Positions 54,802 through 55,765 of a DNA stretch of 64,000 bases are shown here, piece after piece. This DNA comes from Neodothiora populina. Lineage: Eukaryota. Every line of letters begins with the position of its first letter. The stretch's first letter is position 1. The notes under the pieces were generated by a model. The model saw nothing but the letters and a program-made list of their open reading frames with translations, searched no databases and had not been told where the DNA came from. The stretch is from assembly GCF_041146345.1 (NCBI RefSeq), contig NW_027191413.1, positions 1,116,001 through 1,180,000 of the forward strand, given 5' to 3'. The translations under genes and the position numbers were made by a program.

Positions 54802-54915
54802 TTAGTTGCGGTCGAGACTGTTGGAGACAGTGCAGTAGTAGACCTGACGGGCCTGGAGGGTGCAGTAGTAGACTTGAGTAGCCTGGAGGGTGCAGTAATA
54901 GACTTGGGTGGCCAT
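54802..54915 (-). CDS. 37-aa tandem-repeat peptide precursor MATQVYYCTLQ-ATQVYYCTLQ-ARQVYYCTVS-NSLDRN (candidate CaaX pheromone precursor)
   Basis: TCAAAATGG Kozak context; three 30-bp repeats; mostly C-ending codons; 5'UTR intron 55018-54959 (GTAAGC..GCTAAC..TAG). Below the ORF-track size cutoff. Confidence 0.75.
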   Translation of the reverse strand: MATQVYYCTLQATQVYYCTLQARQVYYCTVSNSLDRN

Positions 54916-55765
54916 TTTGATTGGTTGGTAGATCTGCTTGGTGAGGCTTGGTAGAAACCTATGTGATTGATCGTTAGCTTTGCCGGTTTGAAGGTCTTGT
55001 GTCTGGTGGGTTGCTTACTTAACGAGTGTATGTAGCTGGTACTGGTGAAGAGAGAAGAGGGGAGCATCTAGGATGAGCAGAGCTCGATACTGATCTCTCC
55101 TTTCTGCTGTGATAGAAGACGGTTCCTTATTATCTTTGTGATGTCCCTTTCTTGTCTTTCATAGTGCTTTGTGAAGACGAGGTGATTTCCATCCAAGTCA
55201 AGTCTAGAGTATTCAGGTTGCTCAATCGGGGAAGTGTTAGTATTGTTCCTGCGCCTAATATTGTTCTCAAAGACAAAGCATCTCGAAATAGATTGCCAGA
55301 TCAAACACAATGGAAAGTCATTTGAGAACCAGGGAATGGGACTGATAGGATAGATGTTCATTTGTCATGACAGAGAGTGGTACTATGGTTCCATTTATCT
55401 GGAGCCTCGAGAGGTCAACACTCGTACAGCGATCATCGAAGCATGTGTCTTGAAATACGGGGCAATCAAGGTAGAAGAGTCGACTCTGCATGTCAGTTCA
55501 AGAGATCACGATGTGCATTTCCGATGCGACGCGAAATGTTAGGGAAGACGCTGTAGACCGTGGTACACATTGTGAGCATATCCATCAATTTGTCGCCCAC
55601 GACGTGATGTTGCTGCATATCTTGATATGGACGTGGGACTCGTGTCATATAGACCGCTTACTATTGTTCTCATTAGGACGCTAGTCCTGATTGGGTAATC
55701 GCGGACCTCATTCCACGAATGACGGATGAGAATGACCGAGACCATGATCCGACAAGCCATCTGCT

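Follow-up and report, generated by a model that had tools for sequence, protein, structure and literature searches.

An open reading frame of three cysteine-motif repeats between SHG1 and the eIF2B-delta gene of Neodothiora populina as a possible a-factor-type pheromone gene

Our analysis asked whether a very small open reading frame (ORF) lying between the SHG1 and eIF2B-delta genes of Neodothiora populina encodes a mating pheromone precursor, as proposed by an initial annotation that described it as a candidate for a repeat-type lipopeptide pheromone. Precursors of the a-factor type are recognized by a length below 100 amino acids (aa), the absence of a signal peptide, and a CaaX or CpaX motif at the extreme C terminus. 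The ORF is short and begins M-A-T-Q, without a hydrophobic leader or signal peptide. A terminal CaaX motif is missing, as are dibasic sites (KR, KK, or RR) anywhere in the 37 residues; the translation confirms the initial annotation on both points. The question is thus whether a peptide with three internal C-T-[LV]-[QS] motifs, ending in NSLDRN, can be understood as a member of this class.

The ORF occupies positions 54802 to 54915 on the minus strand of the window, by which we mean the whole 64-kb stretch of DNA analyzed. Its 37 codons plus stop, translated as MATQVYYCTLQATQVYYCTLQARQVYYCTVSNSLDRN, specify the initiator Met, three directly abutting 10-residue units, each composed of AxQVYYC followed by TLQ, TLQ, or TVS, and the six-codon tail NSLDRN (54805 to 54822, minus strand), which makes the last CaaX-like motif nonterminal. 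This architecture, seen in both the ORF list and the translation, is as it had been described. All three units lie on the minus strand. Unit 1 (54883 to 54912) and unit 2 (54853 to 54882) both read ATQVYYC-TLQ and, as claimed, differ at three bases, all of them synonymous third positions (GCC/GCT, ACC/ACT, and TAT/TAC); unit 3 (54823 to 54852) reads ARQVYYC-TVS. A unit-by-unit codon comparison across the three copies found four synonymous-only and three residue-changing columns in the sense frame, versus one and six, respectively, in either of the remaining sense frames. The Q-V-Y-Y-C-T segment is invariant, with residue changes confined to position 2 and to the last two positions (a2 and X). 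The AxQVYYCT core therefore shows signs of selection, albeit in small numbers. The differences between units 1 and 2 are all pyrimidine transitions, and a calculation by hand puts the probability of three synonymous changes between about 0.01 (equiprobable sites) and about 0.08 (C/T sites only).

Tandem Repeats Finder reported a 30-bp period at 54830 to 54913 (2.8 copies, 87% matches, score of 126), the second-highest score among its 16 rows for the window. The NSLDRN tail was considered as a decayed fourth unit and rejected, its alignment score being reached in 1,560 of 2,000 shuffles, and tblastn found no second copy of the peptide elsewhere in the window. A separate tandem repeat at 63015 to 63949 (period of 249 bp, 3.8 copies, 75% matches) is situated inside frames that stay open to the window end on both strands (61914 to 63998, minus; 62320 to 63999, plus) and have no Pfam match; it is probably part of a gene for a repetitive protein.

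With respect to coding signals, the start context (TCAAAATGG) is near-ideal, and the codons are strongly C-ending, with C at 68% of third positions compared to 33% in the long ORFs of the window; both observations agree with the initial annotation. The commonest synonym is used in 27 of 36 codons.

The flanking genes had been named correctly. On the same strand as the small ORF, the upstream neighbor is a gene for a COMPASS subunit Shg1-like protein (main exon at 55938 to 57587, minus strand; Pfam PF05205, COMPASS-Shg1), and the downstream neighbor is the two-exon eIF2B-delta gene (52196 to 53969, minus strand, with its ATG at 53969; Pfam PF01008, eIF2B family). Among named proteins, one of N. 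populina matches the eIF2B-delta exon best, with 99% identity, followed by proteins from Dothideomycetes sp. (76%) and Aureobasidium (71% to 73%), which assigns the window to a member of the Dothideales. In a Pfam scan of the 35 long ORFs of the window, those with matches belong to housekeeping families, and no mating gene, cyanase, or EBP2 was among the matches; the latter two flank the a-factor genes of Sordariomycetes. Since the stretch from the small ORF to the eIF2B-delta ATG contains TATA-like elements at both this locus and the syntenic locus described below, and also an AATAAA at the latter, the small ORF and eIF2B-delta appear to fit better as separate transcription units than as a coding gene with an upstream ORF.

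Using the eIF2B-delta exon as the query, we collected 64 metagenome loci carrying an eIF2B-delta relative. Shg1 is also present in seven of these, and one locus, L041, was the only one to share the order and orientation of the window, with SHG1 followed by a small ORF and then eIF2B-delta, the flanks being confirmed by Pfam. Because its eIF2B-delta is closest to proteins of Myriangium (72% to 73%) and Elsinoe (69% to 71%), sequence similarity places its likely source as a Myriangiales-like Dothideomycete. In L041, Shg1 and eIF2B-delta are separated by 781 bp, and this space contains a same-strand ORF of 28 aa, MPTTIRHIGDPNYGLPGNTKPFYSCVIM (MPTT...FYSCVIM), which is free of repeats and closes with a terminal CaaX motif, CVIM. 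This ORF looks like a standard a-factor-type precursor, as its length, its MP[ST]T start, and the aromatic residue that shortly precedes C-V-I-M agree with those of published ones. Shuffling this space produced a CaaX-terminal ORF of 15 to 70 aa on the same strand in 285 of 20,000 trials, or in 98 of 20,000 if an aromatic residue was required; in real 781-bp tiles from the 64 loci, the corresponding counts were 14 and 5 of 1,282. L041 was the only locus with a convincing CaaX ORF among the 51 in which at least 800 bp upstream of eIF2B-delta could be scanned, and most of the other scanned loci are Lecanoromycete-like or Pleosporales-like, without linkage to Shg1. The window and L041 peptides have nothing in common except an aromatic residue close before Cys, and neither small ORF was assigned to a Pfam family. 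Of the synteny and tblastn check suggested with the initial annotation, the part concerning SHG1-eIF2B-delta synteny yielded a single comparator, L041, while tblastn of the window peptide against the 64 loci returned chance-level matches only.

The 5' regions of the two small ORFs were also compared. The 60-nt intron previously proposed for the 5' untranslated region is present as a sequence pattern (GTAAGC..GCTAAC..TAG; 54959 to 55018, minus strand), with its donor at -103 relative to the ATG. When the 250 nt preceding the ATG were shuffled, the pattern appeared in its strict form in 8 of 5,000 cases, and dividing the actual window sequence into 250-nt tiles gave it in 1 of 510. L041 has a 45-nt pattern (GTATGA..CTAAT..CAG) with its donor at -101, and a loose form of the pattern arises by chance in 143 of 5,000 (window) and 187 of 5,000 (L041) shuffles of the respective 250 nt. 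An intron-like pattern with a donor about 100 nt before the ATG is common to both loci. Both putative first exons also contain an upstream ATG (window, 55067, minus strand; L041, 3180, plus strand) and, with the intron-like stretch removed, its frame would span the whole small ORF in a different frame at both loci. Unspliced, the window frame is an ORF of 114 aa (54723 to 55067), and the L041 frame continues that of a 49-aa ORF (3228 to 3377); these alternative-frame products show no likeness to each other.

Upstream of the ORF, the window carries two copies of GAACAATA, which has an AACAAT core, at 55241 to 55266 and a third at 55662 to 55669, i.e., three of the five copies in the entire window. 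AACAAT is found three times in the 1,022-bp upstream region of the window ORF (0.43 expected; P = 0.0097) and three times in the 405-bp upstream region of L041 (0.21 expected; P = 0.0014), where GAACAATA or AACAAT words lie at 2901 to 2909, 2949, and 3029, values that have to be read in light of the post hoc choice of this motif from words shared by both upstream regions. The number of 8- and 9-mers shared by the two regions, six, is not above that in shuffles (mean of 3.1, maximum of 9). AACAAT is the core bound by Sox/HMG-box factors, a class that includes MAT1-2-1, and the clusters may, as a lead, represent sites for an HMG-box factor. No Ste12-type TGAAACA element was present in the upstream region of either ORF. 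A further word, ATATATAACC, is common to the window (54461 to 54471, minus strand) and L041 (3069 to 3082, plus strand); in L041 it precedes the small ORF by about 220 nt, whereas in the window it comes about 330 nt after the small ORF, on the side of eIF2B-delta, and is not itself followed by a pheromone-like ORF.

Searches for direct relatives of the peptide gave little. A word-index protein search with a 41-aa query (the ORF plus four in-frame upstream codons) yielded no candidate of near or longer length, and exact look-up found the window 37-aa, overlapping 114-aa, and L041 28-aa ORFs all absent from the protein collection. An ESM Atlas search was uninformative (best score of 0.82, unnamed clusters). 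In a literature text search, motifs of the window peptide did not occur, and CVIM-type strings were found in the Schmoll paper only. Among the other metagenome loci, there were only two repeat-type Cys ORFs, neither near an eIF2B-delta start. A 29-aa frame ending in GYCLVV in locus L010 (391 to 480) has an a-factor-like C terminus and recurs in L008, L011 to L013, and L015; it is probably not a gene, because an ATG is present in only one of these six related loci, the start reading GTG in the others. A 15-aa ORF, M[PL]PSSTLRSGRCFSF, is conserved between L030 (1851 to 1898) and L032 (2510 to 2557), about 3.5 kb upstream of eIF2B-delta; this conservation would mean little, as the ORF is too short and the two Lecanoromycete-like loci are too close.

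Comparison with known systems helps to define what kind of precursor this might be. Canonical Pezizomycotina precursors (N. crassa mfa-1, M. grisea MF1-1, G. zeae ppg2, and the putative Leotiomycete one) resemble the window ORF in their tiny size and in the aromatic residue before Cys, but each consists of a Ser/Thr-rich leader and one unit only, with M as the last residue of the terminal CaaX. Sordariomycete precursors comprise 21 to 26 aa, mostly start with MPST (MSPST in M. grisea), and end in C-[VT]-[VI]-M, with an aromatic residue shortly ahead of the Cys (M. grisea, N. crassa, P. anserina, and G. zeae; all but M. grisea in Wilson et al. 2023, supplement file 6). The X residue is M, and in a few cases L, in the Pezizomycotina examples compared, versus Q or S in the window ORF. 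Before their putative Leotiomycete candidate (45 to 64 aa, mostly with a terminal CTVM), no a-factor gene was known from filamentous ascomycetes outside the Sordariomycetes (Wilson et al. 2023), and the accessible part of the literature on Dothideomycete pheromone precursors reports none for that class.

The closest architectural parallel is provided by Huntiella (Ceratocystidaceae), whose a-factors consist of a leader and three to five directly abutting 12-aa units without dibasic spacers, each unit ending in C-[STNA]-[VL]-M, with a conserved peptide and a variable CaaX; repeat-type a-factors are also known from the Fusarium fujikuroi complex. Like these, the window ORF is short, lacks a signal peptide and dibasic spacers, and has at least three abutting units of a conserved peptide plus C-polar-aliphatic-X, in which CaaX varies among units and the a1a2 pairs, TL and TV, also occur in Huntiella. 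It differs in having 10-aa rather than 12-aa units, a leader of Met only instead of at least 14 aa, Q or S instead of M at X, and six residues after the last unit, which in Huntiella stands at the extreme C terminus; the fungal class (here, Dothideomycetes) and the flanking genes differ as well. The h-type precursor HPP1 of Trichoderma reesei, cited in the initial annotation as a precedent for repeated motifs, serves as such: according to the accessible part of its description, this protein of about 5 kDa acts in the a-type role, is essential for male fertility, and has three copies of a Cys-containing motif, as does the window ORF. That source defines the h-type by one copy at the extreme C terminus and gives HPP1 two Kex2 sites, whereas the window ORF has neither a C-terminal copy nor Kex2 sites. 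Such sites do not occur in every h-type precursor. Rhodotorucine A precursors (Rhodosporidium toruloides), with Lys spacers and a terminal CaaX, belong to a basidiomycete system and have no sequence relation to the window ORF.

Three other explanations have to be weighed against a functional pheromone gene. The ORF could be a disabled relic, an a-factor-type locus no longer yielding a prenylated product, which we consider unlikely. With no terminal CaaX and six codons after the last one, the peptide as translated cannot be farnesylated, and losses of this kind have precedents, given that Colletotrichum a-factor genes in which no stop follows the CaaX have been scored as losses and that unisexual Huntiella species have truncated a-factor genes. 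We also found no sexual state of N. populina reported; the accessible part of its description sheet gives host and canker habit. Inspection by hand revealed, however, no one-step path from a stop codon to AAC, the first codon of the tail, and no nearby stop in the shifted frames. The start codon is intact and has kept its strong context, the intron pattern is also preserved, and the synonymous divergence of units with a retained core peptide argues for selection after triplication.

Alternatively, there may be no peptide gene here at all but a 30-bp minisatellite, either intergenic or, as an upstream ORF, in a long 5' leader of eIF2B-delta, that is open by chance, with the L041 CaaX ORF being a coincidence. 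In favor of this explanation, ORFs of at least 37 aa are frequent in the same intergenic stretch, units 1 and 2 differ at merely three sites, and the antisense frame is also open, with a codon-usage log-odds of 4.77 compared to 4.09 for the sense frame, so that the measure does not separate the two. Moreover, a full-library phmmer search with the window peptide gave 11 matches (E values up to 0.001), its only library matches, which we rejected as relatives because each is a long translated stretch of tandemly repeated DNA whose units are YYC-like; such peptides can thus arise from noncoding repeats. Nevertheless, the same flanks, the same strand, and the L041 CaaX ORF are jointly hard to obtain by chance. 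The intron-like patterns at -103 and -101, the enrichment of AACAAT at both loci, and, for the upstream-ORF version, the TATA-like elements and AATAAA before the eIF2B-delta ATG likewise speak against it, and we regard this explanation as quite improbable. Least probable of all, in our judgment, is another small peptide unrelated to mating, be it a ribosomally synthesized and posttranslationally modified peptide (RiPP) with Tyr/Cys cross-links or an unmodified or aggregation-prone product. While the repeated YYC core and the absence of a terminal CaaX would suit a nonprenylated product, the ORF lacks both a signal peptide and dibasic sites, and its syntenic counterpart in L041 lacks the repeat and ends in a classical CaaX. 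The RiPP-like alternative raised in the initial annotation gains no support from the neighborhood: a dikaritin-type precursor has a signal peptide, core repeats separated by Kex2 sites, and a UstYa/DUF3328 neighbor, none of which was found for this locus, and Pfam detected no UstYa/DUF3328, tyrosinase, prolyl oligopeptidase, or methyltransferase among the 35 long ORFs of the window.

We therefore favor, with a probability of roughly one-half (0.48), the reading that the window ORF is an orthologous a-factor-type pheromone gene at an SHG1-eIF2B-delta locus of Dothideomycetidae, present as a triplicated version resembling that of Huntiella, from which the tail would have to be removed. For this reading, we infer orthology, transcription, every processing step, and a function in mating. 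The claim of a repeat-type lipopeptide pheromone gains support from the L041 CaaX ORF at the same place and on the same strand, from the intron-like pattern, and from the Huntiella-type architecture; it is weakened by the missing terminal CaaX, the defining feature of the class, which leaves a choice between prior removal of the tail and a relic gene that has been disabled. Also against it, there is a single syntenic comparator, L041, and both upstream ATGs open frames across the small ORF.

In the favored scenario, the leader of the Neodothiora gene would have been reduced to the start Met and the mature-peptide-plus-CaaX segment tandemly triplicated, as in Huntiella, the Fusarium fujikuroi complex, and Trichoderma HPP1. 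Farnesyltransferase requires a C-terminal CaaX and is compatible with Q or S at X. An endo- or carboxypeptidase would therefore have to remove the six-residue tail, exposing C-T-V-S, whose cysteine could then be modified by farnesyltransferase, the aaX protease, and the carboxyl methyltransferase. A cut before the unit would free a farnesylated, methylated A(T/R)QVYYC and expose the next C-T-L-Q, and repetition of this cycle from the C terminus inwards might generate up to three peptides per precursor, destined for export through a Ste6-type transporter and for perception by a Ste3-type receptor. No lipopeptide pheromone is known to be as short as the resulting mature 7-mer, and we know of none for which a CaaX end created by prior proteolysis has been described. 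The more far-reaching proposal, that the SHG1-eIF2B-delta gene is the Dothideomycete a-factor gene and that its Neodothiora form is a capped poly-pheromone of three abutting farnesylation units whose maturation starts with CaaX-creating proteolysis, may be entertained but is, in our estimation, rather doubtful.

In conclusion, this tiny unannotated gene may mark a mating-pheromone locus unreported for Dothideomycetes, a class that includes many crop and tree pathogens as well as the Aureobasidium yeasts. If true, the SHG1-eIF2B-delta locus would be checkable by synteny in any Dothideomycete genome and would provide a handle on cryptic sexuality, and the Neodothiora form would raise the biochemical question of how an internal CaaX is exposed.
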